Source of the DNA: Escherichia coli | GTDB lineage: Bacteria > Pseudomonadota > Gammaproteobacteria > Enterobacterales > Enterobacteriaceae | Direction: 5' to 3' (one strand) | Length of the DNA stretch: 64,000 bases | Assembly: GCF_041248615.1 (NCBI RefSeq) | Contig: NZ_CP158426.1 | In this document: piece after piece, positions 2,030 to 64,000 of the stretch | Layout: every line of letters starts with the position of its first letter | Position numbering within the stretch: position 1 is the first letter of the stretch | Translations under genes and position numbers: made by a program | Notes under the pieces: model-generated | The model's input: the letters and a program-made list of their open reading frames with translations, nothing else | Databases searched by the model: none | Told to the model about the DNA's origin: nothing

Positions 2030-4471
2030 TCACTCTGCCACTTTTTTCTTCGCCGCACGCTTCGCTTTGGTCGCTGCGGCTATTTTCTGCGTTTTCGCCG
2101 ATGGCTTTTTCGCTTTTCTCGCGTCTTTCTTCGCCGCTTTCGGCTTCGTTTTTTTCTCACCACGGAAGGCGCTGTCTGGCTCAAAGTTTACCTTTTTACC
2201 GACCTGACGACGCTTGCCGCCTTTTTTACCTGCATCGCCTTTTTTCGCTTTCTCGCGCGCCGTTTTACCTACGTTGCGCGGTGCGCGTTCGCTGGAGATC
2301 AGGCTAAAGTCGATTTTACGCTCGTCCATATTAACCGCTTCGACGCGAACTTCCACGCGATCGCCCAGGCGATAAGTCTGGCCGCTGGATTCACCCATCA
2401 GGCGTTGCCCTACCTGGTCAAAGCGATAGTAGTCATTGTCCAGCGAAGAGACATGGACCAGACCATCAATGAACAAGTCGTCCAGACGGACAAAGAATCC
2501 AAAGCCAGTGACGCTGGAAATTACGCCTTTAAAGACGTTACCTACCTGGTCGAGCATGAAGTCACACTTCAGCCAGTCAGCCACATCGCGCGTTGCTTCG
2601 TCGGCACGACGTTCTGCCATCGAACAGTGCTGACCCAGTTGCAGCATCTCTTCCATCGAATAATGGTAGCCGCCGGTTTCAGTGGTGTTACCCTGATGCC
2701 CCTGCTCTTTCGCCAGCAGATACTTAATGGCGCGGTGCAGCGTCAGGTCAGGATAACGACGAATCGGCGAAGTGAAGTGCGCATAGGACTGCAATGCCAG
2801 ACCGAAGTGACCACGGTTTTCTGGATCGTAAATCGCCTGTTTCATCGAGCGCAGCAGCATGGTTTGCAGCATTTCTGCGTCAGGACGATCGGCAACCGAC
2901 TCCAGCAGCTCCGCGTAGTCACGCGGTTCCGGCTTGTTACCGCCCGGCAATTCCAGCCCCAGCTCCGCCAGCACTGAACGGAAAGAGGTAATTGCTTCGG
3001 TGCTCGGCTTGTCGTGAATACGGAACAGTGCTGGTTCCTTGGCTTTCTCAACGAAACGCGCCGCCGAGATATTCGCCAGAATCATACACTCTTCAATTAA
3101 TTTGTGTGCGTCGTTACGCTGGGTCTGTTCGATACGTTCAATACGGCGTTCAGCGTTGAAAATGAACTTCGCTTCTTCGCTCTCAAATGAGATCCCACCA
3201 CGTTCTTCACGGGCTTTATCCAGCACTTTATAGAGGTTATGCAACTCTTCGAGATGCTTAACCAGTGGGGCGTACTGCTCGCGCAGATCCTGATCGCCCT
3301 GCAGAATATGCCAGACTTTGGTGTAGGTCAGACGTGCGTGAGAGCTCATTACCGCTTCATAGAATTTGTAGCCAGTCAGGCGGCCTTTCGACGAAACCGT
3401 CATCTCGCACACCATACACAGGCGGTCTACCTGCGGGTTGAGCGAACACAGACCGTTAGAGAGCACTTCCGGCAGCATCGGGATAACCTGCGAAGGGAAG
3501 TACACCGACGTACCACGGTTACGCGCTTCTCTGTCCAGCGGTGTTGGCGGACGCACATAGTAGCTGACGTCGGCAATCGCGACCCATAAACGCCAGCCGC
3601 CGCCGCGTTTTTTCTCGCAGTAAACTGCATCGTCAAAGTCACGGGCGTCTTCGCCATCAATGGTGACCAGCGGTAAATCGCGCAGATCGACACGGCCCGC
3701 TTTTGCTTCTTCCGGCACTTCTTCTTTCAGCCCGGCAACCTGTTGCTCAACGGCCTGCGGCCAGATATACGGAATTTCATGGGTACGCAGAGCGATATCA
3801 ACCGCCATGCCGGTGCCCATATTGTCGCCAAGTACTTCGACGATTTTACCCACCGCTTTGGTACGGCGAGTCGGGCGTTGGGTCAGTTCAACAACCACCA
3901 CAAAGCCCATCCGCGCGCCCATGATCTGATCGGGCGGGATTAAGATATCGAAGCTCAAACGACTGTCGTCAGGAACCACAAAGCCGACGCCCGCTTCGGT
4001 AAAGTAGCGACCAACAATCTGGCTGGTTTTTGGCACCAGTACGCGGACAATACGCGCTTCACGACGACCTTTACGGTCAGCACCCAGCGGCTGCGCCAGC
4101 ACCTGATCGCCATGAATGCAGGTTTTCATCTGCTCGCTGGAGAGATACAAATCATCTTTACGCCCTTCAACCCGCAGAAAGCCGTAGCCATCACGGTGGC
4201 CAATAACGGTACCTTTCACCAGGTCGAGGCGTTCCGGCAGCGCATAGCACTGACGACGAGTGAAGACCAGTTGACCATCGCGCTCCATCGCGCGCAGGCG
4301 GCGACGCAGGCCTTCAAGCTGCTCTTCGCCTTCAATGTGCAGTTCTACCGCCAGCTCATCACGGCTGGCCGGTTTTTCACGTTTGGTTAAATGTTCGAGG
4401 ATAAATTCCCGACTAGGGATGGGATTCGCGTATTTTTCAGCTTCGCGTTCCTGGAAAGGATCTTGTGACAT
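2030..4471 (-). CDS. rnr: Ribonuclease R (813 aa from ATG at 4471; ORF track extends to 827 aa from an upstream alternative start)
   Basis: Translation [20 protein letters not shown]... with a lysine-rich C-terminal tail; 813-aa form matches recalled K-12 RNase R. Confidence 0.95.
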
Positions 4472-4509
4472 CTCGGTTCCTCCGTTGTCATCTCTGATGA
4501 AGATTTTCG

Positions 4510-4935
4510 TCACTCCACCAGCAATAATTTATAAAGCGGTTGATTCTCTTCAACCAAATCGGCAAGCGTGTAGTTATCCAGTTCCGTAAGAAAACTTTGC
4601 ACGGCCTTAGAAAGTGCCTGTTTCAACCGACAGGCAGGTGTAATGTGGCAAAACTCACTGCTGCAATTCACCAGCGATAAGGGCTCCAGCTCGCGCACCA
4701 CATCACCAATACGTATCGCACTCGCCGGTTTACCCAGACGAATGCCGCCATTTTTTCCACGAACAGCAGTCACGTAGCCGGCACGACTAAGTTGATTGAT
4801 TATTTTGACCATATGATTACGGGAGACGCCGTAGACGTCAGTCACTTCAGAAATACTGGTCATCCGCCCTTCTGGCAATGACGCCATGTAGATCAGCGCA
4901 CGTAATCCGTAATCAGTGAAACTCGTTAACTGCAC
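4510..4935 (-). CDS. nsrR: Nitric-oxide-sensing Rrf2-family repressor NsrR (141 aa, GTG start)
   Basis: ORF translation [23 protein letters not shown]... with the three-Cys Fe-S ligand region; matches NsrR. Confidence 0.9.
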
Positions 4936-5139
4936 ATCAACCTCAAAAGGGAAATCGGGAAAAAATACATTTATATTGATGATAAACCAGCCACAAGCTG
5001 TGTCGCTAATTTATTTCAGTTCGGGGAAGGAAAAAAGCGAGGATTTAACACTGTGTCGGATAGCGTAATGGCTTACCCGACACAGCAATGTATCACACTG
5101 TTAGCCCGGCAGGCAAAATATCTGCCAGGCGTACCAGAA

Positions 5140-6441
<1,302 letters not shown>

Positions 6442-11873: not shown

Positions 11874-13713
11874 CTTTCAGGGCTTTTATCGCCGGATGTA
11901 AATCAACAGATTGTAACAGACCACCCGGCGGCGTTTTCACAAGTTGCGGACATAACCGTTCCACGTCCGCCAGCAGGGTTATGGCCTGCGCCATTGACCA
12001 CTGCGCATGTTCGCTCATCAGATTTCGTGCAATCCACTGCGCAATATTGCCAGGTTCGAATACGGACTGCTTCGCCAGGTAGCCTATCAGTTCAGGAATC
12101 AAGATTTGTAAATTTTGTTGGCGTAAGGGTAAAGGCACGGCCCTGATGGTCACATGCTGCGCATCGGACTGGAAATCAATACCCAATTCCGCCAGGGCAG
12201 ACTGCGCTTTTTCTAATGCCGATTTTTCTTCACCAGAAACTTTTAGCCGCAGCGGAATCAGCAACGGCTGGGCGCAAACTGGCGCTTCACCCGGCGTCAG
12301 TTGCGCCTGACGCAGCCAACGTTCTGCCACTGGCAAGGCTAAAAGTGAAATGTTGCCGTCGCGCTCCAGCAACGCACAGTCGGAATGGACGATAGTCAGT
12401 ATCCGACCAAAACTCTGACTGTTCGCCGCAAGTGCAGGTTCCTGCGGTTCTGGCGCTTTTGGTTTTTGCATCGGCGCGGGCGTTTGCAAAAGCTGGCGAT
12501 ACACTTCACCTTGCTGTTTCTGGTAACCTGGCTGCGCATTCGGCCAAGGGGCAGCCGGACGACTGCCTGAGGCGGGCGCAGGAGTGTAACGCGGAGCTAC
12601 TGGCTCACGAACTGCCGGTTCAGCAAAATGATTGCGCCCCGCCGCCACGCGGTTTTCCGGGATGGCGCGCGGTGCAGGTTGTGGTTCATCGTCCAGCGGT
12701 AGCGGCGTTTCCAGTTGCTGTTGTAGCACGCTCAGCACGCCCTGATAGATAAAATCATGCACCAGACGCGACTGATGGAAACGCACTTCGTGTTTGGCAG
12801 GGTGCACGTTGACGTCCACCTGATGTGGGTCGATCTCCAGATACAGCACAAATGCCGGTTGCTGATCGGCCCCCAGTTTGTCTTCGCAGGCCTGGCGGAT
12901 CGCGTGATTGATCAGGCGATCGCGCATCATGCGACCGTTCACGTAGCAATACTGAATTTCTGCCAGTGCGGGCGTGGTGTGATTTGGATCGGCCACCCAG
13001 CCGCGTAGCGTGAGATCGCCGTGTTGCCATTCAATCGCCAGCGCTTGTTCAAGAAAAGCGGTGCCGCAAATCGCGCCTAAGCGCCGTTCTTTTTGCCCGC
13101 CTTCCGGCACTGCGCGGTACTGACGCACAATTTTACCGTTATGCGACAGGTTGATCGTGACGTCGAAACGCGCCAGCGCAATGCGGCGGATGATCTCATC
13201 AATGTGGTTAAATTCGGTTTTCTCGGTGCGCAGGAATTTGCGCCGCGCCGGGGTGTTGTAGAACAGATCCAGCACCTCCAGCGTCGTCCCCACAGGATGC
13301 GCCGCCGGTTTTACCGTCACGTTCATATCGCGCCCTTCGGCATAGGCCTGCCAGGCTTCCTGCTGTTCTGCGGTGCGTGAAGTGAGCGTCAGGCGGGAAA
13401 CCGAACTGATACTCGCCAGCGCCTCACCGCGAAAGCCCAGGCTGATAATGGCTTCGAGATCGTCCAGAGAGGCGATTTTACTGGTGGCATGACGCGCCAG
13501 CGCCAGCGCCAGCTCGTCTTTTTTGATACCGCAGCCGTTATCACGAATGCGGATAAGTTTCGCCCCACCGCGTTCGATATCAATATCGATACGTGTCGCA
13601 CCTGCATCGAGGCTGTTTTCCACCAGTTCTTTGACTACCGACGCAGGTCGCTCGACCACCTCACCTGCGGCAATCTGGTTCGCCAGTTGTGGCGGTAAGA
13701 CCTGAATTGGCAT
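11866..13713 (-). CDS. mutL: DNA mismatch repair protein MutL (615 aa from ATG at 13713)
   Basis: Translation [39 protein letters not shown]... (GHKL ATPase); the ORF track adds one codon from an upstream TTG. Confidence 0.95.
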
Positions 13714-48420: not shown

Positions 48421-48526
48421 CAGAAACACAGAAAAGAAGCGATTTGCCGCAATCTTAAGCAGTTGAATCGCTTTTACTGAAATTAGGTTGACGAGATGTG
48501 CAGATTACGGTTTAATGCGCCCCGTT

Positions 48527-48602
48527 GCCCGGATAGCTCAGTCGGTAGAGCAGGGGATTGAAAATCCCCGTGTCCTTGGTTCGATTCCGAGTCCGGGCAC
48601 CA
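48527..48602 (+). tRNA. pheU: tRNA-Phe (GAA anticodon)
   Basis: GCCCGGATAGCTCAGTCGGTAGAGCAGGGGATTGAAAATCCCCGTGTCCTTGGTTCGATTCCGAGTCCGGGCACCA, a 76-nt cloverleaf with encoded CCA. Confidence 0.95.
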
Positions 48603-48612
48603 AATTCATATA

Positions 48613-48640
48613 AACGGACCTCCACGGAGGTCCGTTTTTC
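48613..48640 (+). terminator. pheU Rho-independent terminator
   Basis: acggacctcc-acgg-aggtccgt hairpin followed by TTTTCGTTT. Confidence 0.8.
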
Positions 48641-49218
48641 GTTTCAGGACGCCACAATTTAAGCGTTCTGCCTAAAAATCATTTCTACCGAACTCAACCA
48701 AATTCTCCCCACAACACCAGCATTTTGCGGGTATATCCCAATTCGGGAAAATTTGTTCCTGAGCTATAGCGCTGACTGACGTGAAATGTCGTGCGACCCC
48801 GTGATGCTGTTGAATGTCAAATGACGTCATCAGGAGCGTAACGCATCCATAAAGCACAACACCGGTCTGAACGCCGACTGATGAGATTTTCTGAATGAGA
48901 ACAAAGAGAAATGTATCAGTCCGCTTGCTCATGCAAAGACTAACAATCCATTAAAATAGTAAGCGCTCCGGACAATTTTCCATGGATTATTTTCTGAACA
49001 TTTTTCTTTGGCAAAGATGATGAATTTTGATGGTAAGGAATATTACTTCTGGTTCTCAGTAAAATCCTTTCTCAATACTATGTGATCAAGAAGTTTATGT
49101 CTGGTAAAAATAACGTCTTGCATTCACCAATAATATGTAAATAAACCCATCTATAGATGGTAAAAATAGGTTGTGGCAATTATCATTGCATCATTCCCTT
49201 TTCGAATGAGTTTCTATT

Positions 49219-50757
49219 ATGCAACAACCTGTAGTTCGCGTTGGCGAATGGCTTGTTACTCCGTCCATAAACCAAATTAGCCGCAATGGGCGTCAACTTA
49301 CCCTTGAGCCGAGATTAATCGATCTTCTGGTTTTCTTTGCTCAACACAGTGGCGAAGTACTTAGCAGGGATGAACTTATCGATAATGTCTGGAAGAGAAG
49401 TATTGTCACCAATCACGTTGTGACGCAGAGTATCTCAGAACTACGTAAGTCATTAAAAGATAATGATGAAGATAGTCCTGTCTATATCGCTACTGTACCA
49501 AAGCGCGGCTATAAATTAATGGTGCCGGTTATCTGGTACAGCGAAGAAGAGGGAGAGGAAATAATGCTATCTTCGCCTCCCCCTATACCAGAGGCGGTTC
49601 CTGACACAGATTCTCCCTCCCACAGTCTTAACATTCAAAACACCGCAACGCCACCTGAACAATCCCCAGTTAAAAGCAAACGATTCACTACCTTTTGGGT
49701 ATGGTTTTTTTTCCTGTTGTCGTTAGGTATCTGTGTAGCACTGGTAGCGTTTTCAAGTCTTGATACACGTCTTCCGATGAGCAAATCGCGTATTTTGCTC
49801 AATCCACGCGATATTGACATTAATATGGTAAATAAAAGTTGTAACAGCTGGAGTTCCCCGTATCAGCTCTCTTACGCGATAGGCGTGGGTGATTTGGTGG
49901 CGACATCACTTAACACCTTCTCCACCTTTATGGTGCATGACAAAATCAACTACAACATTGATGAACCGAGCAGTTCCGGTAAAACATTATCTATTGCGTT
50001 TGTTAATCAGCGCCAATACCGTGCTCAACAATGCTTTATGTCGGTAAAATTGGTAGACAATGCAGATGGTTCAACCATGCTGGATAAACGTTATGTCATC
50101 ACTAACGGTAATCAGCTGGCGATTCAAAATGATTTACTCCAGAGTTTATCAAAAGCGTTAAACCAACCGTGGCCACAACGAATGCAGGAGATGCTCCAGC
50201 AAATTTTGCCTCATCGTGGTGCGTTATTAACTAATTTTTATCAGGCACATGATTATTTACTGCATGGCGATGATAAATCATTGAACCGTGCCAGTGAATT
50301 ATTAGGTGAGATTGTTCAATCATCCCCAGAATTTACCTACGCGAGAGCAGAAAAAGCATTAGTTGATATCGTGCGCCATTCTCAACATCCTTTAGATGAA
50401 AAACAATTAGCAGCACTGAACACAGAAATAGATAACATTGTTACACTACCGGAATTGAATAACCTGTCCATTATATATCAAATAAAAGCGGTCAGTGCTC
50501 TGGTAAAAGGTAAAACAGATGAGTCTTACCAGGCGATAAATACTGGCATTGATCTTGAAATGTCCTGGCTAAATTATGTGTTGCTTGGCAAGGTTTATGA
50601 AATGAAGGGGATGAACCGGGAAGCAGCTGATGCATATCTCACCGCCTTTAATTTACGCCCAGGGGCAAACACCCTTTACTGGATTGAAAATGGTATATTC
50701 CAGACTTCTGTTCCTTATGTTGTACCTTATCTCGACAAATTTCTCGCTTCAGAATAA
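49219..50757 (+). CDS. cadC: ToxR-like membrane-integrated transcriptional activator CadC (512 aa)
   Basis: Translation MQQPVVRVGEWLVTPSINQISRNGRQLTLEPRLIDLLVFF... (winged-helix, single TM, periplasmic sensor); contains the PPPIP motif at codons 120-124 (49576-49590). Confidence 0.95.
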   Translation: MQQPVVRVGEWLVTPSINQISRNGRQLTLEPRLIDLLVFFAQHSGEVLSRDELIDNVWKRSIVTNHVVTQSISELRKSLKDNDEDSPVYIATVPKRGYKLMVPVIWYSEEEGEEIMLSSPPPIPEAVPDTDSPSHSLNIQNTATPPEQSPVKSKRFTTFWVWFFFLLSLGICVALVAFSSLDTRLPMSKSRILLNPRDIDINMVNKSCNSWSSPYQLSYAIGVGDLVATSLNTFSTFMVHDKINYNIDEPSSSGKTLSIAFVNQRQYRAQQCFMSVKLVDNADGSTMLDKRYVITNGNQLAIQNDLLQSLSKALNQPWPQRMQEMLQQILPHRGALLTNFYQAHDYLLHGDDKSLNRASELLGEIVQSSPEFTYARAEKALVDIVRHSQHPLDEKQLAALNTEIDNIVTLPELNNLSIIYQIKAVSALVKGKTDESYQAINTGIDLEMSWLNYVLLGKVYEMKGMNREAADAYLTAFNLRPGANTLYWIENGIFQTSVPYVVPYLDKFLASE

Positions 50758-51122
50758 GTAACTCCCGGGTTGATTTATGCTCGGCAATATTTATTGTTGA
50801 GTTTTTGTATGTTTCTGTTGGTATAATATGTTGCGGTAATTTATTTGCCGCATAATTTTTATTACATAAATTTAACCAGAAAATGTCCCGCAATCCATTG
50901 TAAACATTGAATGTTTATCTTTTCATGATATCAACTTGCGATCCTGATGTGTTAATAAAAAACCTCAAGTTCTCACTTACAGAAACTTTTGTGTTATTTC
51001 ACCTAATCTTTAGGATTAATCCTTTTTTCGTGAGTATTCTTAGCGCCAGTTTGGTCTGGTCAGGAAATAGTTATACATCATGACCCGGACTCCAAATTCA
51101 AAAATGAAATTAGGAGAAGAGC

Positions 51123-52457
51123 ATGAGTTCTGCCAAGAAGATCGGGCTATTTGCCTGTACCGGTGTGGTTGCCGGTAATATGATGGGGAGCGGTATTGCA
51201 TTATTACCTGCGAACCTAGCAAGTATCGGTGGTATTGCTATCTGGGGTTGGATTATCTCTATTATTGGTGCAATGTCGCTGGCGTATGTATATGCCCGAC
51301 TGGCAACAAAAAACCCGCAACAAGGTGGCCCAATTGCTTATGCCGGAGAAATTTCCCCTGCATTTGGTTTTCAGACAGGTGTTCTTTATTACCATGCTAA
51401 CTGGATTGGTAACCTGGCGATTGGTATTACCGCTGTATCTTATCTTTCCACCTTCTTCCCAGTATTAAATGATCCTGTTCCGGCGGGTATCGCCTGTATT
51501 GCTATCGTCTGGGTATTTACCTTTGTAAATATGCTCGGCGGTACCTGGGTAAGCCGTTTAACCACTATTGGTCTGGTGCTGGTTCTTATTCCTGTGGTGA
51601 TGACTGCTATTGTTGGCTGGCATTGGTTTGATGCTGCAACTTATGCAGCTAACTGGAATACTGCGGATACCACTGATGGTCATGCGATCATTAAAAGTAT
51701 TCTGCTCTGCCTGTGGGCCTTCGTGGGTGTTGAATCCGCAGCAGTAAGTACTGGTATGGTTAAAAACCCGAAACGTACCGTTCCGCTGGCAACCATGCTG
51801 GGTACTGGTTTAGCAGGTATTGTTTATATCGCTGCGACTCAGGTGCTTTCCGGTATGTATCCGTCTTCTGTAATGGCAGCTTCCGGTGCTCCGTTTGCAA
51901 TCAGTGCTTCAACTATCCTCGGTAACTGGGCTGCGCCGCTGGTTTCTGCATTCACCGCCTTTGCGTGCCTGACTTCTCTGGGCTCCTGGATGATGTTGGT
52001 AGGCCAGGCAGGTGTACGTGCCGCTAACGACGGTAACTTCCCGAAAGTTTATGGTGAAGTCGACAGCAACGGTATTCCGAAAAAAGGTCTGCTGCTGGCT
52101 GCAGTGAAAATGACTGCCCTGATGATCCTCATCACTCTGATGAACTCTGCCGGTGGTAAAGCATCTGACCTGTTCGGTGAACTGACCGGTATCGCAGTAC
52201 TGCTGACTATGCTGCCGTACTTCTACTCTTGCGTTGACCTGATTCGTTTTGAAGGCGTTAACATCCGCAACTTTGTCAGCCTGATCTGCTCTGTACTGGG
52301 TTGCGTGTTCTGCTTCATCGCGCTGATGGGCGCAAGCTCCTTCGAGCTGGCAGGTACCTTCATCGTCAGCCTGATTATTCTGATGTTCTACGCTCGCAAA
52401 ATGCACGAGCGCCAGAGCCACTCAATGGATAACCACACCGCGTCTAACGCACATTAA
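51123..52457 (+). CDS. cadB: Lysine/cadaverine antiporter CadB (444 aa)
   Basis: Translation MSSAKKIGLFACTGVVAGNMMGSGIALLPANLASIGG...; APC-family transporter. Confidence 0.95.
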   Translation: MSSAKKIGLFACTGVVAGNMMGSGIALLPANLASIGGIAIWGWIISIIGAMSLAYVYARLATKNPQQGGPIAYAGEISPAFGFQTGVLYYHANWIGNLAIGITAVSYLSTFFPVLNDPVPAGIACIAIVWVFTFVNMLGGTWVSRLTTIGLVLVLIPVVMTAIVGWHWFDAATYAANWNTADTTDGHAIIKSILLCLWAFVGVESAAVSTGMVKNPKRTVPLATMLGTGLAGIVYIAATQVLSGMYPSSVMAASGAPFAISASTILGNWAAPLVSAFTAFACLTSLGSWMMLVGQAGVRAANDGNFPKVYGEVDSNGIPKKGLLLAAVKMTALMILITLMNSAGGKASDLFGELTGIAVLLTMLPYFYSCVDLIRFEGVNIRNFVSLICSVLGCVFCFIALMGASSFELAGTFIVSLIILMFYARKMHERQSHSMDNHTASNAH

Positions 52458-52536
52458 TTAAAAGTATTTTCCGAGGCTCCTCCTTTCATTTTGTCCCATG
52501 TGTTGGGAGGGGCCTTTTTTACCTGGAGATATGACT

Positions 52537-54684
52537 ATGAACGTTATTGCAATATTGAATCACATGGGGGTTTATTTTAAAGAAGAACCCATCCGTGAAC
52601 TTCATCGCGCGCTTGAACGTCTGAACTTCCAGATTGTTTACCCGAACGACCGTGACGACTTATTAAAACTGATCGAAAACAATGCGCGTCTGTGCGGCGT
52701 TATTTTTGACTGGGATAAATATAATCTCGAGCTGTGCGAAGAAATTAGCAAAATGAACGAGAACCTGCCGTTGTACGCGTTCGCTAATACGTATTCCACT
52801 CTCGATGTAAGCCTGAATGACCTGCGTTTACAGATTAGCTTCTTTGAATATGCGCTGGGTGCTGCTGAAGATATTGCTAACAAGATCAAGCAGACCACTG
52901 ACGAATATATCAACACTATTCTGCCTCCGCTGACCAAAGCATTGTTTAAATATGTTCGTGAAGGTAAATATACTTTCTGTACTCCTGGTCACATGGGCGG
53001 TACTGCATTCCAGAAAAGCCCGGTAGGTAGCCTGTTCTATGATTTCTTTGGTCCGAACACCATGAAATCTGATATTTCCATTTCAGTATCTGAACTGGGT
53101 TCTCTGCTGGATCACAGTGGTCCACACAAAGAAGCAGAACAGTATATCGCTCGCGTCTTTAACGCAGACCGCAGCTACATGGTGACCAACGGTACTTCCA
53201 CTGCGAACAAAATTGTTGGTATGTACTCTGCTCCGGCAGGCAGCACCATTCTGATTGACCGTAACTGCCACAAATCGCTGACCCACCTGATGATGATGAG
53301 CGATGTTACGCCAATCTATTTCCGCCCGACCCGTAACGCTTACGGTATTCTTGGTGGTATCCCACAGAGTGAATTCCAGCACGCTACCATTGCTAAGCGC
53401 GTGAAAGAAACACCAAACGCGACCTGGCCGGTACATGCCGTAATTACCAACTCTACCTATGATGGTCTGCTGTACAACACCGACTTCATCAAGAAAACAC
53501 TGGATGTGAAATCCATCCACTTTGACTCCGCGTGGGTGCCTTACACCAACTTCTCACCGATTTACGAAGGTAAATGCGGTATGAGCGGTGGCCGTGTAGA
53601 AGGGAAAGTGATTTACGAAACCCAGTCTACTCACAAACTGCTGGCGGCGTTCTCTCAGGCTTCCATGATCCACGTTAAAGGTGACGTAAACGAAGAAACC
53701 TTTAACGAAGCCTACATGATGCACACCACCACTTCTCCGCACTACGGTATCGTGGCGTCCACTGAAACCGCTGCGGCGATGATGAAAGGCAATGCAGGTA
53801 AGCGTCTGATCAACGGTTCCATTGAACGTGCGATCAAATTCCGTAAAGAGATCAAACGTCTGAGAACGGAATCTGATGGCTGGTTCTTTGATGTATGGCA
53901 GCCGGATCATATCGATACCACTGAATGCTGGCCGCTGCGTTCTGACAGCACCTGGCACGGCTTCAAAAACATCGATAACGAGCACATGTATCTTGACCCG
54001 ATCAAAGTCACCCTGCTGACTCCGGGGATGGAAAAAGACGGCACCATGAGCGACTTCGGTATTCCGGCCAGCATCGTGGCGAAATACCTCGACGAACATG
54101 GCATAGTTGTTGAGAAAACCGGTCCGTATAACCTGCTGTTCCTGTTCAGCATCGGTATCGATAAGACCAAAGCACTGAGCCTGCTGCGTGCTCTGACAGA
54201 CTTCAAACGTGCGTTCGATCTGAACCTGCGTGTGAAAAACATGCTGCCGTCTCTGTATCGTGAAGATCCTGAATTCTATGAAAACATGCGTATTCAGGAA
54301 CTGGCTCAGAATATCCACAAACTGATTGTTCACCACAATCTGCCGGATCTGATGTATCGCGCATTTGAAGTTCTGCCGACCATGGTAATGACTCCGTATG
54401 CTGCGTTCCAGAAAGAGCTGCACGGTATGACCGAAGAAGTTTACCTCGACGAAATGGTAGGTCGTATTAACGCCAATATGATCCTTCCGTATCCGCCGGG
54501 AGTTCCTCTGGTAATGCCGGGTGAAATGATCACCGAAGAAAGCCGTCCGGTTCTGGAGTTCCTGCAGATGCTGTGTGAAATCGGCGCTCACTATCCGGGC
54601 TTTGAAACCGATATTCACGGTGCATACCGTCAGGCTGATGGCCGCTATACCGTTAAGGTATTGAAAGAAGAAAGCAAAAAATAA
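52537..54684 (+). CDS. cadA: Inducible lysine decarboxylase CadA (715 aa from ATG at 52537)
   Basis: Translation MNVIAILNHMGVYFKEEPIRELHRALERLNFQIVYPNDRDDLL... with the PLP-binding fold; the 715-aa form matches recalled CadA. Confidence 0.97.
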   Translation: MNVIAILNHMGVYFKEEPIRELHRALERLNFQIVYPNDRDDLLKLIENNARLCGVIFDWDKYNLELCEEISKMNENLPLYAFANTYSTLDVSLNDLRLQISFFEYALGAAEDIANKIKQTTDEYINTILPPLTKALFKYVREGKYTFCTPGHMGGTAFQKSPVGSLFYDFFGPNTMKSDISISVSELGSLLDHSGPHKEAEQYIARVFNADRSYMVTNGTSTANKIVGMYSAPAGSTILIDRNCHKSLTHLMMMSDVTPIYFRPTRNAYGILGGIPQSEFQHATIAKRVKETPNATWPVHAVITNSTYDGLLYNTDFIKKTLDVKSIHFDSAWVPYTNFSPIYEGKCGMSGGRVEGKVIYETQSTHKLLAAFSQASMIHVKGDVNEETFNEAYMMHTTTSPHYGIVASTETAAAMMKGNAGKRLINGSIERAIKFRKEIKRLRTESDGWFFDVWQPDHIDTTECWPLRSDSTWHGFKNIDNEHMYLDPIKVTLLTPGMEKDGTMSDFGIPASIVAKYLDEHGIVVEKTGPYNLLFLFSIGIDKTKALSLLRALTDFKRAFDLNLRVKNMLPSLYREDPEFYENMRIQELAQNIHKLIVHHNLPDLMYRAFEVLPTMVMTPYAAFQKELHGMTEEVYLDEMVGRINANMILPYPPGVPLVMPGEMITEESRPVLEFLQMLCEIGAHYPGFETDIHGAYRQADGRYTVKVLKEESKK

Positions 54685-54696
54685 TTAGCTCGTACA

Positions 54697-54726
54697 AGGG
54701 AAGTGGCTTGCCACTTCCCTTTTTTG
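54697..54726 (+). terminator. cadBA Rho-independent terminator
   Basis: gggaagtggc-ttg-ccacttccc hairpin followed by TTTTTTGCT. Confidence 0.8.
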
Positions 54727-54742
54727 CTCATAAGGAGAACAC

Positions 54743-56200
54743 ATGAAAACACCCTCACAGCCGCGCGCGATATACTATATCGTGGCGATCCAAATCTGGG
54801 AGTACTTCAGTTTTTACGGCATGCGTGCCTTACTCATTCTCTATCTCACCCATCAGCTTGGTTTTGATGATAACCATGCCATCAGCCTGTTCAGCGCATA
54901 TGCATCTCTGGTTTACGTTACCCCTATTCTCGGCGGCTGGCTTGCCGACCGCCTGCTCGGCAACCGCACTGCAGTGATTGCCGGCGCGCTGTTAATGACC
55001 CTTGGCCATGTGGTGCTGGGCATTGATACAAATTCAACTTTTAGCCTGTATCTGGCGCTGGCAATCATTATTTGTGGCTACGGTTTATTCAAATCAAACA
55101 TCAGCTGTTTGCTTGGCGAGCTCTACGACGAGAACGATCATCGACGTGATGGCGGTTTTTCGCTGCTGTATGCTGCGGGCAATATCGGTTCTATCGCAGC
55201 CCCAATCGCCTGCGGCCTGGCTGCTCAGTGGTATGGATGGCATGTTGGCTTTGCCCTTGCGGGTGGCGGCATGTTTATCGGTTTGTTGATTTTCTTAAGC
55301 GGTCATCGTCATTTCCAGTCCACGCGTAGTATGGATAAAAAAGCGCTAACAAGCGTTAAATTTGCCTTACCAGTATGGAGCTGGTTAGTGGTGATGCTCT
55401 GTTTAGCCCCTGTATTTTTTACCCTGCTGCTGGAGAACGACTGGTCAGGATATTTGCTGGCGATCGTTTGCCTCATTGCCGCACAAATCATTGCCCGCAT
55501 GATGATCAAATTCCCCGAACACCGCCGTGCTCTTTGGCAAATTGTATTGTTGATGTTTGTCGGGACGTTGTTCTGGGTACTGGCACAACAGGGCGGCAGT
55601 ACCATCAGCTTGTTTATCGATCGCTTTGTGAATCGTCAGGCATTCAATATTGAAGTACCTACAGCACTATTCCAGTCGGTGAATGCCATTGCGGTGATGC
55701 TCGCTGGGGTTGTTCTGGCCTGGCTGGCGTCGCCAGAAAGCCGCGGCAATTCAGCATTGCGCGTCTGGCTGAAGTTTGCCTTTGGCTTACTGCTGATGGC
55801 TTGTGGCTTTATGTTGCTGGCATTTGATGCCCGACATGCAGCGGCTGGCGGTCAAGCGTCAATGGGCGTGATGGTATCCGGGCTGGCGCTAATGGGCTTT
55901 GCTGAACTCTTTATTGACCCGGTGGCGATTGCGCAAATCACGCGTCTGAAAATGTCTGGCGTATTAACCGGTATTTATATGCTGGCAACAGGCGCGGTCG
56001 CCAACTGGCTGGCAGGCGTCGTGGCACAGCAGACGACAGAGTCGCAAATTAGCGGTATGGCAATTGCCGCTTACCAGCGATTCTTTTCTCAGATGGGAGA
56101 GTGGACGTTGGCTTGTGTCGCGATCATCGTGGTATTGGCCTTTGCTACCCGTTTTCTGTTTAGCACGCCGACGAATATGATACAGGAGAGTAACGATTAA
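54743..56200 (+). CDS. dtpC: Proton-dependent dipeptide/tripeptide permease DtpC (485 aa)
   Basis: Translation [36 protein letters not shown]... (POT/PTR2 family signature). Confidence 0.9.
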
Positions 56201-56436
56201 CTGTCGTAAAAACAATTGGTTATGAATAAATTAACTTTCAGTTTATCACACTAGCAAATCGAGATTAATAAGTCATTTAAACCATTTTTATGGTTATTTA
56301 TTAGTGATATCAACTTGAGGTAAGCGTTAGTTTCGATAAGATAAACTGAGTTATTAATAGTCGAGGCAGATAATACAGTGTACCGATCTGTCTCTTTATC
56401 TACGCTAAATTGAAAGCTGGATTTAGAGGAACCAAA

Positions 56437-57954
56437 ATGTCTGAACGAGAAACACGGGGAGCCAATGAGGCTATTGATTTTAACGATGAACTGAGAAATC
56501 GCCGCGAAAAACTGGCGGCACTACGTCAGCAAGGTGTGGCGTTTCCCAATGATTTTCGCCGCGACCATACCTCTGACCAGTTGCACGAAGAGTTTGATGC
56601 GAAGGATAACCAGGAACTGGAATCCTTAAACATTGAAGTCTCGGTTGCTGGCCGAATGATGACCCGTCGTATCATGGGGAAAGCCTCCTTTGTAACGTTG
56701 CAGGATGTCGGTGGCCGTATTCAACTGTACGTCGCACGAGATAGCCTGCCAGAAGGTGTTTATAACGATCAGTTTAAAAAATGGGATCTGGGTGACATTA
56801 TCGGTGCCCGCGGTACGCTGTTTAAGACGCAAACGGGTGAGCTTTCCATTCACTGTACTGAGCTGCGCCTGCTGACTAAAGCACTACGTCCTTTACCAGA
56901 TAAATTCCATGGTCTGCAGGATCAGGAAGTCCGTTATCGTCAACGTTATCTGGACCTCATCGCTAACGATAAATCCCGTCAAACGTTTGTTGTCCGTTCA
57001 AAAATTCTGGCCGCTATCCGTCAGTTCATGGTCGCGCGCGGCTTTATGGAAGTAGAAACCCCGATGATGCAGGTAATTCCAGGTGGGGCATCTGCTCGCC
57101 CGTTTATTACCCATCATAACGCTCTGGATTTAGATATGTACCTGCGTATCGCGCCAGAGCTGTATCTGAAACGTCTGGTTGTAGGCGGTTTTGAACGGGT
57201 ATTCGAAATCAACCGTAACTTCCGTAATGAAGGTATTTCTGTTCGCCATAATCCTGAGTTCACAATGATGGAACTCTACATGGCGTATGCGGATTACCAC
57301 GATTTGATTGAACTGACAGAGTCACTGTTCCGCACCCTGGCACAAGAGGTTCTGGGTACCACTAAAGTCACTTATGGCGAGCATGTGTTTGATTTCGGCA
57401 AACCGTTTGAAAAACTCACCATGCGCGAAGCAATCAAAAAATATCGTCCAGAAACCGATATGGCCGACCTGGATAATTTTGATGCCGCTAAAGCATTAGC
57501 TGAATCTATTGGTATTACGGTAGAGAAAAGCTGGGGGCTGGGACGTATTGTCACGGAGATCTTTGATGAAGTGGCAGAAGCACATCTGATTCAGCCAACC
57601 TTTATTACGGAATATCCCGCAGAAGTGTCACCGCTGGCGCGCCGTAATGATGTTAACCCGGAAATCACCGACCGATTTGAATTCTTCATCGGTGGTCGTG
57701 AAATCGGTAATGGTTTTAGCGAATTAAACGACGCAGAAGATCAGGCTGAACGTTTCCAGGAACAGGTTAACGCTAAAGCTGCAGGTGACGACGAAGCCAT
57801 GTTCTATGACGAAGATTACGTGACTGCGCTGGAATATGGTTTGCCACCAACCGCTGGTCTGGGTATTGGTATCGACCGAATGATTATGCTGTTTACAAAC
57901 AGTCATACTATTCGCGACGTTATTCTCTTCCCGGCGATGCGCCCACAGAAATAA
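56437..57954 (+). CDS. lysU: Lysine--tRNA ligase, heat-inducible isoform LysU (505 aa from ATG at 56437)
   Basis: Translation MSE(R/Q)[29 protein letters not shown]... (class II aaRS); assigned lysU rather than lysS by its position next to the cad/dtpC genes. Confidence 0.95.
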
Positions 57955-58072
57955 TTTTCACTTTAATGAACGAAGCAGTCAGGCGACTGCTTCGTTCATC
58001 ATTCCGCAAATCCAGTTTTGAGGAGAGACGCTTCGTTTCACGATAACCAGCGGGTCCACTCAACTACAGCTC

Positions 58073-58246
58073 CTAAAAGAGAGAAAAAAGTAATGCCACA
58101 GGCAGACTCATTGGCCAGGTTATTCCTACCAGGAATGCACTAAGTAAACGAATATGTGTTTTCTCATGTGAGATAAACCAGATAATGACAAAGGATATGT
58201 TCACACCAATCACATAAAAAATTAATATTTTAGAGAATAGTGCCAT
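58073..58246 (-). CDS. ghoT: Type V toxin GhoT, small membrane-lytic peptide (57 aa)
   Basis: Hand translation MALFSKILIFYVIGVNISFVIIWFISHEKTHIRLLSAFLVGITWPMSLPVALLFSLF, TAG stop at 58073-58075; immediately downstream of ghoS. Below the ORF-track cutoff. Confidence 0.85.
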   Translation of the reverse strand: MALFSKILIFYVIGVNISFVIIWFISHEKTHIRLLSAFLVGITWPMSLPVALLFSLF

Positions 58247-58273
58247 TTTTTATGTTCTTCTTATCCTTCCTGG

Positions 58274-58570
58274 CTACTTGTAAAACTGACGGAAATAATC
58301 ATCAACTGTCATAATGTTGAGGTCAAAGTCAATATCCGGTAAGTCTAAGCATTTAAGCCTGATTAAATCTTCGATTTCACTTGCGGCTAACGATGTCGTT
58401 ATTGCGAAGGAGTTTTCATTCAATTGTCGTGGTATCCCATATTCATCAGCCACGATAGAGGAGAAATTCATATCATACATCAATGATCTTAACCTTAAGA
58501 ACACTGAGGAATAAGATGATGGATAATCAAAAGAAACAACATAAGTATTGAACTTGTTTTTACCTTCCAT
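58274..58570 (-). CDS. ghoS: Type V antitoxin GhoS, sequence-specific endoribonuclease (98 aa)
   Basis: ORF translation MEGKNKFNTYVVSFDYPSSYSSVFLRLRSLMYDMNFSSIVADEYGIPRQLNEN... matches GhoS (YjdK). Confidence 0.85.
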   Translation of the reverse strand: MEGKNKFNTYVVSFDYPSSYSSVFLRLRSLMYDMNFSSIVADEYGIPRQLNENSFAITTSLAASEIEDLIRLKCLDLPDIDFDLNIMTVDDYFRQFYK

Positions 58571-58798
58571 AATATGACTCCTATCAATATTGAACGCTCT
58601 GGGGACGCAAAACTTATTAACCCCGATCGATGATTTTCATATAGGAGATATTCTTTTTTTTTTGCTCAGTAAAGGGGATGACTTGGGACAAAAAAACGCT
58701 CTCTCTGACCATTCTTTGTGCATCCCCCTACCCTTCAGATACTCTCCTGCATCACACCGCGGAGAGCAAGAAAAATATCGTGACTCTGTACTCTCCCA

Positions 58799-59071
58799 TC
58801 AACTTCGAATATCATCATACTCACGCGTTTTATCAAATTCGTGTTTCGCAAATGGGCATAGTGGGATAATTTTTCGTTTTTCCCGACGCATTTTTTCCAC
58901 GACTTTCGCAACCAGCTGTTTACCAATCCCTTGCCCTTTCAGGCTTTCATCGACATCGGTATGTTCGATAATCGCTAAATTCTCTCCGGTCGGCACAAAG
59001 ACAATTTCAGCGATTTGCTTGCCCTGTTCGTCATTAATGTAAAATTTATTGTGGCCTTCGCGTATTTCCAT
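58799..59071 (-). CDS. yjdJ: GNAT-family acetyltransferase-like protein YjdJ (90 aa)
   Basis: ORF translation [54 protein letters not shown]...; GNAT motif A (Q/RxxGxG/A). Confidence 0.8.
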
Positions 59072-59082
59072 TTTACCCTCGC

Positions 59083-59313
59083 TTATTTATGACGGTATTT
59101 CAGCGCGCCACTCGGGCACGTATCAATCACTTTAACCACAGTGGCAACGTCGACTTCATCCGGCATGATCCACGGCTTTCGTTTGAGATTAAATAACTTG
59201 CCGTTGCCACGTACGCAATTGCCAGAATGCTGACATATCGCAGTGTTGAAATAGACATCGATCTTTTCGCCGGTATAACAGCGATAACCCCCGTCCAGTA
59301 GCGCCTGATCCAT
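59083..59313 (-). CDS. yjdI: Small Cys-rich protein YjdI (76 aa from ATG at 59313)
   Basis: Translation [55 protein letters not shown]...; the ORF track shows a 102-aa extended version. Confidence 0.8.
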
Positions 59314-59332
59314 GACCTTCCCTCTCTCATCA

Positions 59333-60597
<1,265 letters not shown>

Positions 60598-60754
60598 GAT
60601 TATCGCTATAAGCATAGCCCCGGAATCTTCATACAGCACTGGCAGTTTCCGTTGCCAGAGTCTCTTCCCCTATATAGCCAATCATTCTTACTCCCTTTGA
60701 ATTACCCGCCTCATCAGAGATAATGCTTAAGAAATTTGTCACACAAGGAAGCTG

Positions 60755-62386
60755 ATGAGACATTCATTGCCCTACCGCATGTTACGCAAACGTCCGATGA
60801 AATTGAGTACCACAGTGATCTTAATGGTCAGCGCGGTACTGTTCTCGGTGCTATTGGTGGTGCATCTGATTTACTTCTCGCAAATCAGTGATATGACGCG
60901 AGACGGGCTAGCCAACAAGGCACTGGCGGTGGCGCGTACCCTCGCCGACTCGCCGGAAATCCGTCAGGGCTTGCAGAAAAAACCGCAGGAGAGCGGCATC
61001 CAGGCCATCGCGGAAGCCGTGCGCAAACGCAACGATCTGCTGTTTATTGTCGTTACCGATATGCAAAGTCTTCGCTACTCGCATCCTGAAGCCCAGCGTA
61101 TTGGTCAGCCATTTAAAGGTGATGACATCCTTAAAGCGCTGAATGGCGAAGAAAATGTCGCTATCAATCGCGGTTTTCTGGCGCAGGCTTTACGCGTATT
61201 TACCCCCATCTACGATGAAAATCATAAGCAAATTGGCGTGGTGGCGATCGGCCTTGAGTTAAGCCGCGTGACCCAACAGATCAATGACAGTCGCTGGAGC
61301 ATTATCTGGTCGGTATTATTTGGCATGCTGGTCGGACTGATTGGCACCTGCATTCTGGTTAAAGTATTGAAAAAAATCCTTTTCGGCCTGGAACCCTACG
61401 AAATCTCCACGCTGTTTGAGCAACGCCAGGCCATGTTGCAGTCCATCAAAGAAGGCGTCGTTGCCGTGGACGATCGCGGCGAGGTCACGCTGATCAACGA
61501 TGCCGCACAAGAATTGCTGAATTACCGTAAGTCGCAGGACGATGAGAAGCTGTCGACGCTAAGCCACTCGTGGTCACAGGTAGTAGATGTCTCGGAAGTG
61601 TTACGCGACGGTACGCCGCGCCGCGACGAAGAGATTACGATTAAAGACCGGCTATTACTGATCAACACCGTTCCGGTGCGCAGTAATGGCGTTATCATCG
61701 GTGCCATTTCAACCTTCAGAGACAAAACTGAAGTACGTAAACTGATGCAGCGACTCGACGGTCTGGTCAACTATGCTGACGCACTTCGTGAACGATCCCA
61801 CGAATTTATGAATAAATTGCATGTGATTCTCGGATTATTGCATCTGAAGAGTTATAAGCAGTTGGAAGATTACATTCTCAAAACAGCCAATAACTATCAG
61901 GAAGAGATTGGCTCTCTGCTGGGTAAGATCAAATCTCCGGTTATCGCTGGTTTTTTAATCAGCAAGATTAACCGCGCGACCGATTTAGGCCATACGCTGA
62001 TTTTAAACAGTGAAAGCCAACTGCCAGACAGCGGCAGTGAGGACCAGGTCGCGACGCTGATTACCACATTGGGAAATCTGATAGAAAACGCGCTGGAAGC
62101 ATTAGGGCCGGAACCCGGAGGCGAAATTAGCGTAACATTGCACTACCGTCACGGCTGGCTGCACTGTGAAGTTAACGATGATGGACCGGGGATCGCACCC
62201 GACAAAATCGATCACATTTTTGACAAAGGTGTCTCGACAAAAGGAAGCGAGCGAGGCGTCGGTTTAGCACTTGTCAAACAACAGGTAGAAAATCTCGGCG
62301 GCAGCATCGCCGTGGAATCGGAACCCGGGATTTTCACACAATTTTTTGTCCAGATACCCTGGGACGGGGAGAGGTCGAACAGATGA
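60755..62386 (+). CDS. dcuS: C4-dicarboxylate sensor histidine kinase DcuS (543 aa)
   Basis: Translation with two TM helices, a periplasmic PAS domain, cytoplasmic PAS and HisKA/HATPase domains; full-length match to DcuS. Confidence 0.95.
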   Translation: MRHSLPYRMLRKRPMKLSTTVILMVSAVLFSVLLVVHLIYFSQISDMTRDGLANKALAVARTLADSPEIRQGLQKKPQESGIQAIAEAVRKRNDLLFIVVTDMQSLRYSHPEAQRIGQPFKGDDILKALNGEENVAINRGFLAQALRVFTPIYDENHKQIGVVAIGLELSRVTQQINDSRWSIIWSVLFGMLVGLIGTCILVKVLKKILFGLEPYEISTLFEQRQAMLQSIKEGVVAVDDRGEVTLINDAAQELLNYRKSQDDEKLSTLSHSWSQVVDVSEVLRDGTPRRDEEITIKDRLLLINTVPVRSNGVIIGAISTFRDKTEVRKLMQRLDGLVNYADALRERSHEFMNKLHVILGLLHLKSYKQLEDYILKTANNYQEEIGSLLGKIKSPVIAGFLISKINRATDLGHTLILNSESQLPDSGSEDQVATLITTLGNLIENALEALGPEPGGEISVTLHYRHGWLHCEVNDDGPGIAPDKIDHIFDKGVSTKGSERGVGLALVKQQVENLGGSIAVESEPGIFTQFFVQIPWDGERSNR

Positions 62387-63102
62387 TCAATGTATTAATT
62401 ATCGATGACGACGCAATGGTCGCGGAGCTGAATCGCCGATACGTAGCACAAATCCCAGGCTTTCAATGCTGTGGAACAGCCTCGACGCTGGAGAAAGCCA
62501 AAGAGATTATCTTCAATAGCGATACGCCTATCGACCTGATATTGCTCGATATCTATATGCAAAAAGAGAACGGGCTCGATTTACTGCCTGTCCTGCATAA
62601 CGCGCGTTGCAAAAGTGATGTGATTGTCATCTCCTCCGCAGCCGATGCGGCAACCATTAAAGATTCCCTGCATTACGGTGTTGTGGATTACCTGATCAAA
62701 CCCTTCCAGGCTTCCCGCTTTGAAGAGGCGCTCACCGGCTGGCGGCAAAAGAAAATGGCGCTGGAAAAACATCAGTATTATGACCAGGCCGAGCTTGATC
62801 AGCTAATCCACGGCAGCAGCTCCAACGAGCAGGATCCTCGTCGCTTGCCAAAAGGCTTAACGCCGCAGACGTTACGCACGCTGTGCCAGTGGATTGACGC
62901 GCATCAGGACTATGAGTTTTCAACCGACGAGCTGGCTAACGAGGTTAACATCTCGCGTGTTTCCTGCCGAAAATACCTCATCTGGCTGGTCAACTGCCAC
63001 ATCTTGTTCACCAGTATCCATTATGGCGTCACAGGGCGTCCGGTTTACCGTTACCGTATTCAGGCAGAACACTACTCACTGCTGAAACAATATTGCCAAT
63101 AA
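62383..63102 (+). CDS. dcuR: Response regulator DcuR (239 aa)
   Basis: Translation MINVLIIDDDAMVAELNRRYVAQIPGF... (REC domain plus HTH); start overlaps the dcuS stop by 4 nt. Confidence 0.95.
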   Translation: MINVLIIDDDAMVAELNRRYVAQIPGFQCCGTASTLEKAKEIIFNSDTPIDLILLDIYMQKENGLDLLPVLHNARCKSDVIVISSAADAATIKDSLHYGVVDYLIKPFQASRFEEALTGWRQKKMALEKHQYYDQAELDQLIHGSSSNEQDPRRLPKGLTPQTLRTLCQWIDAHQDYEFSTDELANEVNISRVSCRKYLIWLVNCHILFTSIHYGVTGRPVYRYRIQAEHYSLLKQYCQ

Positions 63103-63672
63103 CGGATCGCTGGTTATCTGTAAGTAATAATTATTACCGTAATGCAAAATACCCCTGGCACAAGTTACATTCTTCATCAGTAAAACTTGTGCCAGATCAA
63201 ATATAATTATCCCTCCATCATCGTTAAAAATTAATATCTCTTCAGATGAACGGTGTTTTTAATTTCAAAACGCTAACAAAAGTTAATTAACTATTATGTC
63301 ACCCGCATTATGTGTATTTTTACCCACAAATGGGTAGATCAGATTAATCTATAAACCTAATGATATCTGCCCTGAGAACAAAAAATAGACCGATAAATAT
63401 CAATAAGATAACAGCAAACAAAACATTAACATCTGCGCAGTACAAACTATAAACCCATCGCCAGAGAGTTTTTCTCTCTGAAAAAGCCGCTTATCACAGT
63501 GCATAAATTTGCCGCTGCTTTAATCAGCCAATATTCACTGTGAGGTATTTGCTAAAGCCGGTAACGACCAAACGGATATTTAGTCAGGCTCTGAAAACAG
63601 TTCATACAAAACAGAACGTGACTGTGATCTATTCAGCAAAAATTTAAATAGGATTATCGCGAGGGTTCACAC

Positions 63673-64000
63673 ATGTTATTTACTATCCAACTTATCATAA
63701 TACTGATATGTCTGTTTTATGGTGCCAGAAAGGGTGGTATCGCGCTGGGTTTATTAGGCGGTATCGGTCTGGTCATTCTGGTCTTCGTCTTCCACCTTCA
63801 GCCAGGTAAACCACCGGTTGATGTCATGCTGGTTATCATTGCGGTGGTGGCGGCATCGGCGACCTTGCAAGCTTCGGGCGGTCTTGATGTCATGCTGCAA
63901 ATTGCCGAGAAGCTGCTGCGCCGCAACCCGAAATATGTCTCAATTGTCGCGCCGTTTGTGACCTGTACGCTGACCATTCTTTGCGGTACGGGTCATGTGG
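63673..64000 (+). CDS. dcuB: Anaerobic C4-dicarboxylate antiporter DcuB, 5' portion (truncated by the window end)
   Basis: ATG at 63673; translation [61 protein letters not shown]..., paralogous to dcuA in this window; downstream of dcuSR as expected. Confidence 0.9.

Follow-up and report, generated by a model that had tools for sequence, protein, structure and literature searches.

The window analyzed here is a stretch of 64,000 nucleotides of Escherichia coli DNA (contig NZ_CP158426.1), in which a tRNA gene is separated by a short spacer from the next long open reading frame (ORF). ARAGORN finds a tRNA-Phe(GAA) at 48527-48602 on the + strand, with a cloverleaf bearing the GAA anticodon, and the Rfam tRNA model RF00005 scores 68.3 bits over the same positions (gathering score, 29). 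At a permissive threshold, Rfam detects nothing besides the tRNA in the searched pheU-cadC stretch. The first long ORF 3' of the tRNA (49219-50757, + strand, 512 aa) is cadC according to the annotation of K-12 and of strain Ecol_316; over 48527-49218 the window is 97.3% identical to the former and 100% identical to the latter. The gene order annotated in both strains, dcuA-cutA-dsbD-dicD(yjdC)-pheU-cadC-cadB, is the E. coli synteny, and the position between dicD (yjdC) and cadC, seen in Ecol_316, in K-12 and in the neighbors listed in NC_000913.3, distinguishes pheU from pheV. Thus the annotated neighbors identify the tRNA as pheU and set the spacer to cadC at 616 bp (48603-49218). ARAGORN, the ORF list and the annotation all confirm what the first-pass annotation had reported, namely that pheU is followed by ~616 bp and then cadC, and no intact integrase or island gene lies between the two.

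The sequence just upstream of the tRNA suggests a promoter for pheU, with a putative -35 element TTGACG (48488-48493), a 17-nt spacer, a putative -10 element TTTAAT (48511-48516) and a GC-rich discriminator, GCGCCCC, between the putative -10 element and pheU. Our consensus promoter scan missed this element because its rule accepts only -10 hexamers with A as the second base. At the opposite end of the spacer lies an AT-rich region (GC 0.39) that presumably holds the promoter and 5' leader of cadC. In the alignment, the final ~65 nt before the cadC ATG are almost invariant across Escherichia species, and identity over 49040-49218 ranges from 0.84 to 0.98 across the species compared. The features that frame the spacer are:

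48488-48516, + strand: likely pheU promoter, from reading of the sequence
48527-48602, + strand: pheU, tRNA-Phe(GAA), from ARAGORN, Rfam and the annotation of Ecol_316 and K-12
48580-48602, + strand: att core, 23 nt at the 3' end of pheU, the crossover site of pheU islands, from comparison with occupied genomes
49016-49218, + strand: cadC upstream region, AT-rich, presumed promoter and 5' leader, from the alignment

As a reference for integrase sequence, we used the intact integrase that lies directly after pheU in strain 23AR0303 (locus L004, positions 4361-5626, 421 aa; WP_001218773.1). This protein has the P4-type architecture (Pfam domains Arm-DNA-bind_3, Phage_int_M and Phage_integrase) and shares 54% identity with phage P4 Int across 97% of its length. 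A tblastn comparison of the L004 integrase with the spacer returned three collinear pieces on the + strand, with E = 5e-10:

48766-48795, + strand: integrase residues 1-10
48800-48883, + strand: integrase residues 359-391
48885-48956, + strand: integrase residues 397-420

The two high-scoring segments of the 3' part reach 37.7 and 29.3 bits, against a mean best score of 16.7 bits and a maximum of 23.9 bits in 200 shuffled spacers. When phage P4 Int itself served as the query, a match was obtained at 48803-48883 (E = 0.002). The nucleotide comparison (blastn) gives the same picture: the whole stump aligns collinearly with the left end of L004, an intact island. Positions 48603-48759 match the att-to-int intergenic region of L004 at 92% identity, with one 12-nt gap; positions 48759-48786 align with the start of the L004 integrase gene (int), whose ATG is replaced by ATA in the window; and positions 48798-49015 are 68% identical to the final ~190 nt of int together with the ~55 nt that follow, in an alignment that includes a 1-nt insertion and two deletions of 14 nt each. 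The earlier statement that the spacer holds no integrase therefore stands for intact genes, and fails for integrase-derived sequence on the + strand, which tblastn, blastn and the shuffled controls all reveal. The island-derived part of the spacer is divided as follows:

48603-48765, + strand: island left-arm relic, the att-to-int intergenic region, 92% identical to its L004 counterpart
48766-48795, + strand: 5' piece of the integrase relic, codons 1-10, from tblastn and blastn with L004 int
48796-48799, + strand: junction of the internal deletion, with ~1.04 kb of int (codons ~11-358) lost, from tblastn and blastn
48800-48959, + strand: 3' piece of the integrase relic, codons ~359-420 and a TAG stop at 48957-48959, corresponding to K-12 yjdQ (b4654)
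48960-49015, + strand: weak residual homology to the DNA just 3' of int in intact islands, from a blastn alignment reaching ~49015

The 5' piece reads IALTDVKCRA, compared with MALTDAKIRA in L004, and its start codon is ATA in E. coli. The 3' piece carries an in-frame stop, a frameshift and the two 14-nt deletions. With the first of these deletions (48843/48844), the relic lost the segment opposite GVRAAY in the alignment, which to judge by the motif would hold the catalytic tyrosine. The C-terminal peptide of the relic reads DFLNENKEKCISPLAHAKTNNPLK plus RDAVECQM..., and the residual homology that follows it probably marks the right limit of recognizable island DNA. From the 68% DNA identity of the 3' part to the intact intP4, it follows that the relic comes from a different lineage of the P4 integrase family.

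The losses are extensive. Relative to the intact intP4, codons ~11-358 are gone, and with them nearly all of the arm-binding domain, of which the first 10 codons remain, the entire core-binding domain and the greater part of the catalytic domain. Compared with functional P4-family integrases, then, homology is present, the arm-DNA-binding (PF13356) and core-binding (PF22022) domains are absent, and only about the last 60 codons of the catalytic domain (PF00589, R..HxxR..Y) are left, in a reading frame broken by the ATA start, the stop and the frameshift. Judged from its sequence, the relic cannot encode a recombinase and keeps no part needed for recombinase activity. The reconstructed 64-aa peptide has no meaningful match in Pfam or NCBIfam, because it is too short and degraded, and the relic is detectable solely by comparison with full-length relatives.

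This sequence has been catalogued before. NC_000913.3 lists yjdQ (b4654) at 4362191-4362353 on the - strand, 198-360 nt from the 3' end of pheU, which is equivalent to ~48800-48962 in the window; place and strand relative to pheU and cadC are the same, the spacers are 97% identical, and the two copies differ by strain-level substitutions only. PGAP marks an integrase pseudogene in most E. coli genomes, describing it on the + strand as "integrase, frameshifted, incomplete, missing N-terminus", with an extent in window terms of ~48845-48959 in Ecol_316 and ~48800-48959 in K-12. The spacer relic is the already annotated K-12 pseudogene yjdQ, and in that respect an ordinary finding. The K-12 record annotates the 3' piece alone, whereas the 10-codon 5' piece and the island left arm are described here. 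Our literature search found no paper on "yjdQ".

The left arm lies directly against the tRNA, and it contains the only terminator that our scan found after pheU:

48612-48645, + strand: pheU Rho-independent terminator, from the terminator scan (RNAfold, -18.4 kcal/mol)

Its hairpin has an 11-bp stem, AAACGGACCTC/GAGGTCCGTTT, with the loop CACG, followed by a T tract (the hairpin at 48612-48637 can also be written AAACGGACCTCC-ACGG-AGGTCCGTTT), and it is 95-100% conserved across the Escherichia species compared. A search for DicD in a single genome of each bacterial species gave 80 dicD-pheU loci across the Enterobacteriaceae, and the hairpin comparison covered 70 loci of this family. Most other genera, among them Citrobacter, Enterobacter, Salmonella, Klebsiella and Kosakonia, carry CTATTTAAAGAACCCAGCCTATGGCTGGGTTTTTGC or a slightly different version of it after pheU, which forms a hairpin of a different, native type (GAACCCAGCC-TATG-GCTGGGTT; as a search pattern, GAACCCGCC..GGCGGGTT). 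The hairpin of the window is found together with a following integrase at least 75% identical to that of L004 in Leclercia (L052), Trabulsiella (L064), K. spallanzanii (L081) and E. coli (L004), and together with a following integrase relic in Escherichia species and in Raoultella (L084); at a single locus, in C. amalonaticus (L012), it occurs with no integrase detected. This confinement to loci with an L004-type integrase or its relic, L012 apart, indicates that the present terminator of pheU was brought in by the island; it would act to end pheU transcription.

Further into the left arm, positions 48603-48735 are ~95-96% identical to the island left ends in occupied genomes. The 12-nt gap relative to L004 removes one of two tandem repeat copies: the motif TTGCGGGTATAT, tandemly duplicated in the intact L004 island, is present once in the window, at 48725-48736. 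By analogy with P4, whose attP arm repeats lie just upstream of int, the motif occupies the corresponding position and may be an arm-type site. The layout as a whole is that of phage P4 Int and of the intact intP4 of pheU and pheV islands (WP_001218773.1), in which the 3' end of the tRNA is followed by ~160-200 nt with arm-type repeats and then by int on the same strand.

In the literature, yjdC-pheU-cadC counts as a standard integration site of LEE and papGII islands. Among 5426 complete E. coli genomes, the tRNA/att sequence and spacer are present over at least 80% of their length in 5217, so that 96% retain the spacer, and dicD, pheU and the relic are contiguous, as in the window, in 3733 (69%). 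In most of the remaining genomes, of which we sampled some, islands lie between pheU and a copy of attR that precedes the relic. At the left junction of these islands, the match to the window extends up to position 48735 only and an intact integrase comes next; at the right junction, the match runs from position 48580 across the relic and on into cadC. The ireA/CP4-like island of strain eco-241 has a 22-nt attR copy at its far end, directly before the relic. These junctions show that new islands integrate at the 3' end of the tRNA, 5' of the old stump. Occupied pheU sites (LEE, papGII and ireA/CP4-like islands) thus have the same attB and the same flanks, yjdC (dicD) and cadC, as the window; the difference is that in them the relic lies beyond attR, whereas in the window no island separates pheU from the relic. 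In occupied strains, the att core and the ~133-nt left arm are present on both sides of the island at ~95% identity, forming a direct repeat of ~156 bp.

We searched the window for a second att site. The 23-nt att core has no second copy at up to 3 mismatches in the window, and none with as many as 6 mismatches was found over the 15.4 kb that follow the tRNA (48603-64000); the first-pass annotation had proposed a search for such a repeat. At up to 8 mismatches, and with a 16-nt core, a single match with 7 mismatches appeared on the opposite strand, which is at chance level. A search for a native-type pheU flank in the window and in locus L003, up to melA, returned chance matches of 9-14 nt only. 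By the usual marks of an island at pheU, then, the same-strand integrase next to the tRNA is present as a relic only, attR is absent at the far boundary, and there is no cargo inside the spacer. The right end of the old island appears to carry no attR mark, and the extent given here spans its recognizable DNA only.

To place the relic in time, we aligned the spacers of the window, K-12, Escherichia sp. E1V33, E. whittamii and strain SCPM-O-B-8794, the last of which is deposited as E. coli and is treated here as a separate species. The junction of the internal deletion is common to all aligned spacers, and thus to four Escherichia species. Smaller changes differ among lineages: SCPM-O-B-8794 has 10 extra nucleotides on the 3' side of the junction and ~20 nt of int leader that are lost in E. 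coli; the segment of the first 14-nt deletion is still present in E. whittamii and SCPM-O-B-8794; and the int ATG is retained in E. whittamii, E1V33 and SCPM-O-B-8794. The common junction together with the lineage-specific indels is evidence for one ancient deletion, followed by separate erosion in each lineage. On this alignment, the relic is old, has been passed down vertically and already existed when E. coli separated from E. whittamii and two other Escherichia lineages.

The identity of the relic to that of the window is 0.90, 0.93 and 0.80 in the three species other than E. coli, compared with 0.85, 0.83-0.87 and 0.74-0.78 at the four-fold-degenerate sites of cadC and dicD in the same species. 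This indicates that the relic has diverged at a roughly neutral rate, perhaps slightly more slowly; it is a little more conserved than four-fold sites, which leaves some room for weak constraint. E. albertii differs. The stump in strain NBRC 107761 consists of int residues ~4-41 followed by unrelated DNA, and in other E. albertii genomes the pheU site, viewed with a 10-kb flank, shows either an island with an intact integrase or a rearrangement by IS1.

We conclude, with a probability of about 0.93, that pheU carries no island at present and its attB is free and usable, and that the first ~410 bp of the spacer are the vertically inherited stump of an ancient P4-like island, made up of a left arm and a decayed int. 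The sequence of events would begin with the insertion of such an island at pheU, the left arm of which would now supply the terminator of the tRNA. The integrase gene would then have lost ~1 kb (codons ~11-358) in one internal deletion, and would have decayed further by loss of the start codon, a stop, a frameshift and small deletions. Later islands would recombine site-specifically at the 3' end of the tRNA, producing the order pheU, island, attR, relic, cadC. Homologous recombination between the left-arm copies could delete such islands and at the same time "refresh" the left arm, which would account for an identity of 92-96% in the left arm as against 68% in the int relic. Given these two values, the stump may be a mosaic and not derive from one element.

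As to the original extent of the island, the stump could be the visible end of a larger element, a whole 10.2-kb segment that an ancestor within Escherichia acquired at pheU and that then went to fixation:

48605-58794, + strand: 10.2-kb segment with the int relic, cadC, cadB, cadA, dtpC, lysU and ghoST, filling the slot between the 3' end of pheU and yjdJ

One line of evidence comes from CP089930.1 (L009, deposited as E. coli E69). Its homology to the window ends at 48604, exactly at the end of the tRNA, and picks up again at 58795 (3' end of yjdJ), with 2.7 kb of other DNA between these points. About 25 nt before its yjdJ lies a native-type pheU hairpin, GAACCCGCCTACAAGGCGGGTTTTTGCTTTT, identical to the hairpin that follows pheU in Pseudenterobacter (L061) and preceded by an att-like sequence, GCTGGCACTACTA. 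The breakpoints and the native terminator directly before yjdJ place window positions 48605-58794 inside the pheU insertion slot and suggest one ancient island. A strain has also been described that lacks exactly the ~10 kb of lysU-yjdL-cadABC between pheU and yjdJ (PMC3408504). Among the 80 species loci, cadC comes next after pheU in Escherichia only; GC is 0.36-0.44 in the spacer, in cadC and in the cadC-cadB gap, compared with ~0.52 upstream of pheU; and a toxin-antitoxin pair, ghoST, stands at the far end.

Other observations weigh against so large an island. The window has neither an attR nor a native terminator before yjdJ, and GC is ordinary in cadB, cadA and dtpC. The right flank of CP089930.1 is just 89% identical and may have been imported, and a junction of the CP089930.1 type is found in no complete RefSeq E. 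coli genome. The outgroup genera also lack yjdJ after pheU, so that they do not fix the ancestral state: tblastn found no YjdJ or YjdI downstream of pheU in other genera, and searches of the pheU loci with DcuB, FumB, YjdF and MelB gave the upstream DcuA paralogue alone among the matches listed. Moreover, the data are accounted for just as well if the cad locus was already resident and a deletion joined it to an int stump of unrelated origin. It is therefore with reservation, and leaning somewhat against it, that we put forward the full proposal: that the 10.2 kb, with the Cad acid-stress system (cadCBA), dtpC, lysU as the second lysyl-tRNA synthetase and the ghoST pair, are a single P4-type island, fixed in the E. 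coli/E. whittamii clade after its split from E. albertii-like lineages, so that pheU would never have been empty and yjdQ would be the last scar of mobility.

We also considered whether the relic has been kept for a function, with the left arm ending pheU transcription and the promoter region of the decayed int feeding cadC. Several features are consistent with such co-option: the strong hairpin, nearly invariant across species, is the sole terminator after pheU; the relic and cadC are on the same strand; and the spacer persists in nearly all genomes. In addition, an RpoH-holoenzyme binding peak has been reported in the K-12 cadC-pheU spacer (PMC5493296, Table 3; in vitro SELEX), and by our own conversion it maps near position 48746 of the window if the coordinates of the table are those of U00096.2. 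However, the resolution of that assay is coarse and the binding was in vitro, our consensus scan shows no sigma-70 promoter on the + strand of the relic, and outside the hairpin both divergence and indels are close to neutral. Co-option of the relic is unlikely, and we rate it below the larger island.

Much less probable is that the site is a truly empty ancestral attB and the spacer ordinary intergenic DNA free of island sequence, as the headline of the first-pass annotation, "unoccupied", implied. The lack of an intact integrase, of cargo in the spacer and of an att duplication agrees with that description, as does a published comparative table in which pheU of K-12, W and B has no mobile element. 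Against it stand the significant, collinear integrase homology on the + strand, obtained by the very translated search for P4-family integrases that had been proposed as a check, the independently annotated pseudogene, and the tRNA-adjacent hairpin, which is of the island type and unlike that of most other genera. These results refute emptiness in the strict sense; they leave intact the view that no island is present now, and the fallback wording, that the site carries at most a short remnant, proved exactly right. Equally improbable is that the one spacer ORF of at least 60 aa (48672-48932, - strand, 86 aa) is a genuine small gene: no ORF there is longer and it starts with ATG, but it has no meaningful match in Pfam or NCBIfam, has no integrase features, as was noted at first, lies antisense to the relic, is annotated neither by PGAP nor in the K-12 record nor in any other record inspected, is cut short by a stop codon in K-12, eco-241 and E1V33 and shows a frameshift in E. 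whittamii and SCPM-O-B-8794, all of which mark it as a chance ORF rather than a gene.

The stump at pheU has known counterparts. The K-12 elements CP4-6, CP4-44, CP4-57 and KpLE2 are likewise decayed P4-integrase elements next to tRNA or tmRNA genes, and they keep kilobases of cargo and mostly recognizable att repeats. At pheU in the window, by contrast, ~0.4 kb survive and no repeat is left, unless one regards the cad block as cargo too.

Since the relic is already in the reference annotation and pheU is a textbook hotspot, our analysis has little practical weight in itself. It does show that tRNA hotspots of E. coli described as unoccupied can carry island-derived flanks, here including even the terminator of the tRNA, which is relevant to how attB is defined and to the design of PCR assays that probe for islands. 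The ~156-bp direct repeat around present-day islands could permit their loss by a route that needs no integrase. If the 10.2-kb segment did enter as one ancient island, an acid-stress module regarded as "core" in E. coli would be island cargo, and this origin would provide a context for the repeated loss of the cad module in Shigella and enteroinvasive lineages.

Comparison with the pheU islands of present-day genomes shows that the stump left between the tRNA-Phe gene pheU and cadC is not uniform: the left arm (window 48603-48735) matches the islands' left ends at 92-96% identity, whereas identity falls to just 68% in the 3' relic of the decayed P4-type integrase gene (window 48798-48959). 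Judged by these alignments, the stump is a mosaic of two parts that differ in their identity to present-day islands. In occupied genomes, direct repeats of ~156 bp lie on either side of the island, and recombination between them may have produced such a structure.

The same spacer contains an RpoH holoenzyme peak from genomic SELEX (K-12 map position 4360430; PMC5493296, Table 3). Our own conversion, which assumes that Table 3 uses U00096.2 coordinates, places this peak at window ~48746; if those coordinates apply, its center lies just 5' of the decayed integrase start and faces cadC.

Within the variable segment between pheU and yjdJ, GC content is markedly low (0.36-0.44) across cadC and the cadC-cadB intergenic region (window 49200-51400), against values of ~0.52 in the sequence preceding pheU and ~0.50 for cadA and dtpC. 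The far end of the segment carries the following pair, in a stretch of 0.37-0.40 GC:

58080-58570, minus strand: putative ghoST, a type V toxin-antitoxin pair (coordinates and gene names deduced from ORF 58274-58570 of the window, ghoS, together with the annotated homologous region in L003)

The native-type pheU hairpin is absent from the ghoS-yjdJ interval of the window (58571-58798). In CP089930.1 (locus L009), from a divergent Escherichia without the 10.2-kb cad block, an att-like relic and a pheU terminator of the native type lie at 13436-13500, ~25 nt upstream of yjdJ.

Many genera share a conserved motif located beyond the native pheU terminator, about 40-60 nt downstream of pheU; carriers include Klebsiella, Kosakonia, Phytobacter, Raoultella, Kluyvera and Salmonella diarizonae:

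GGACTCT(C/T)CATCGAACT: comparison loci L028, L049, L053, L062, L063, L072, L074-L080 and L082

The motif does not correspond to a YjdJ homologue's 3' end. Elsewhere in the window, three tRNA-Gly(GCC) genes stand in tandem as the glyVXY cluster (18467-18886, minus strand).

In E. albertii (L010, 10759-11438; L087-L091), the pheU site is in a different state from that in the window: the type strain retains a short N-terminal integrase stump (amino acids ~4-41), and other strains carry either a P4-type integrase that is intact and accompanied by a fec-like iron-uptake island, or a rearrangement associated with IS1.
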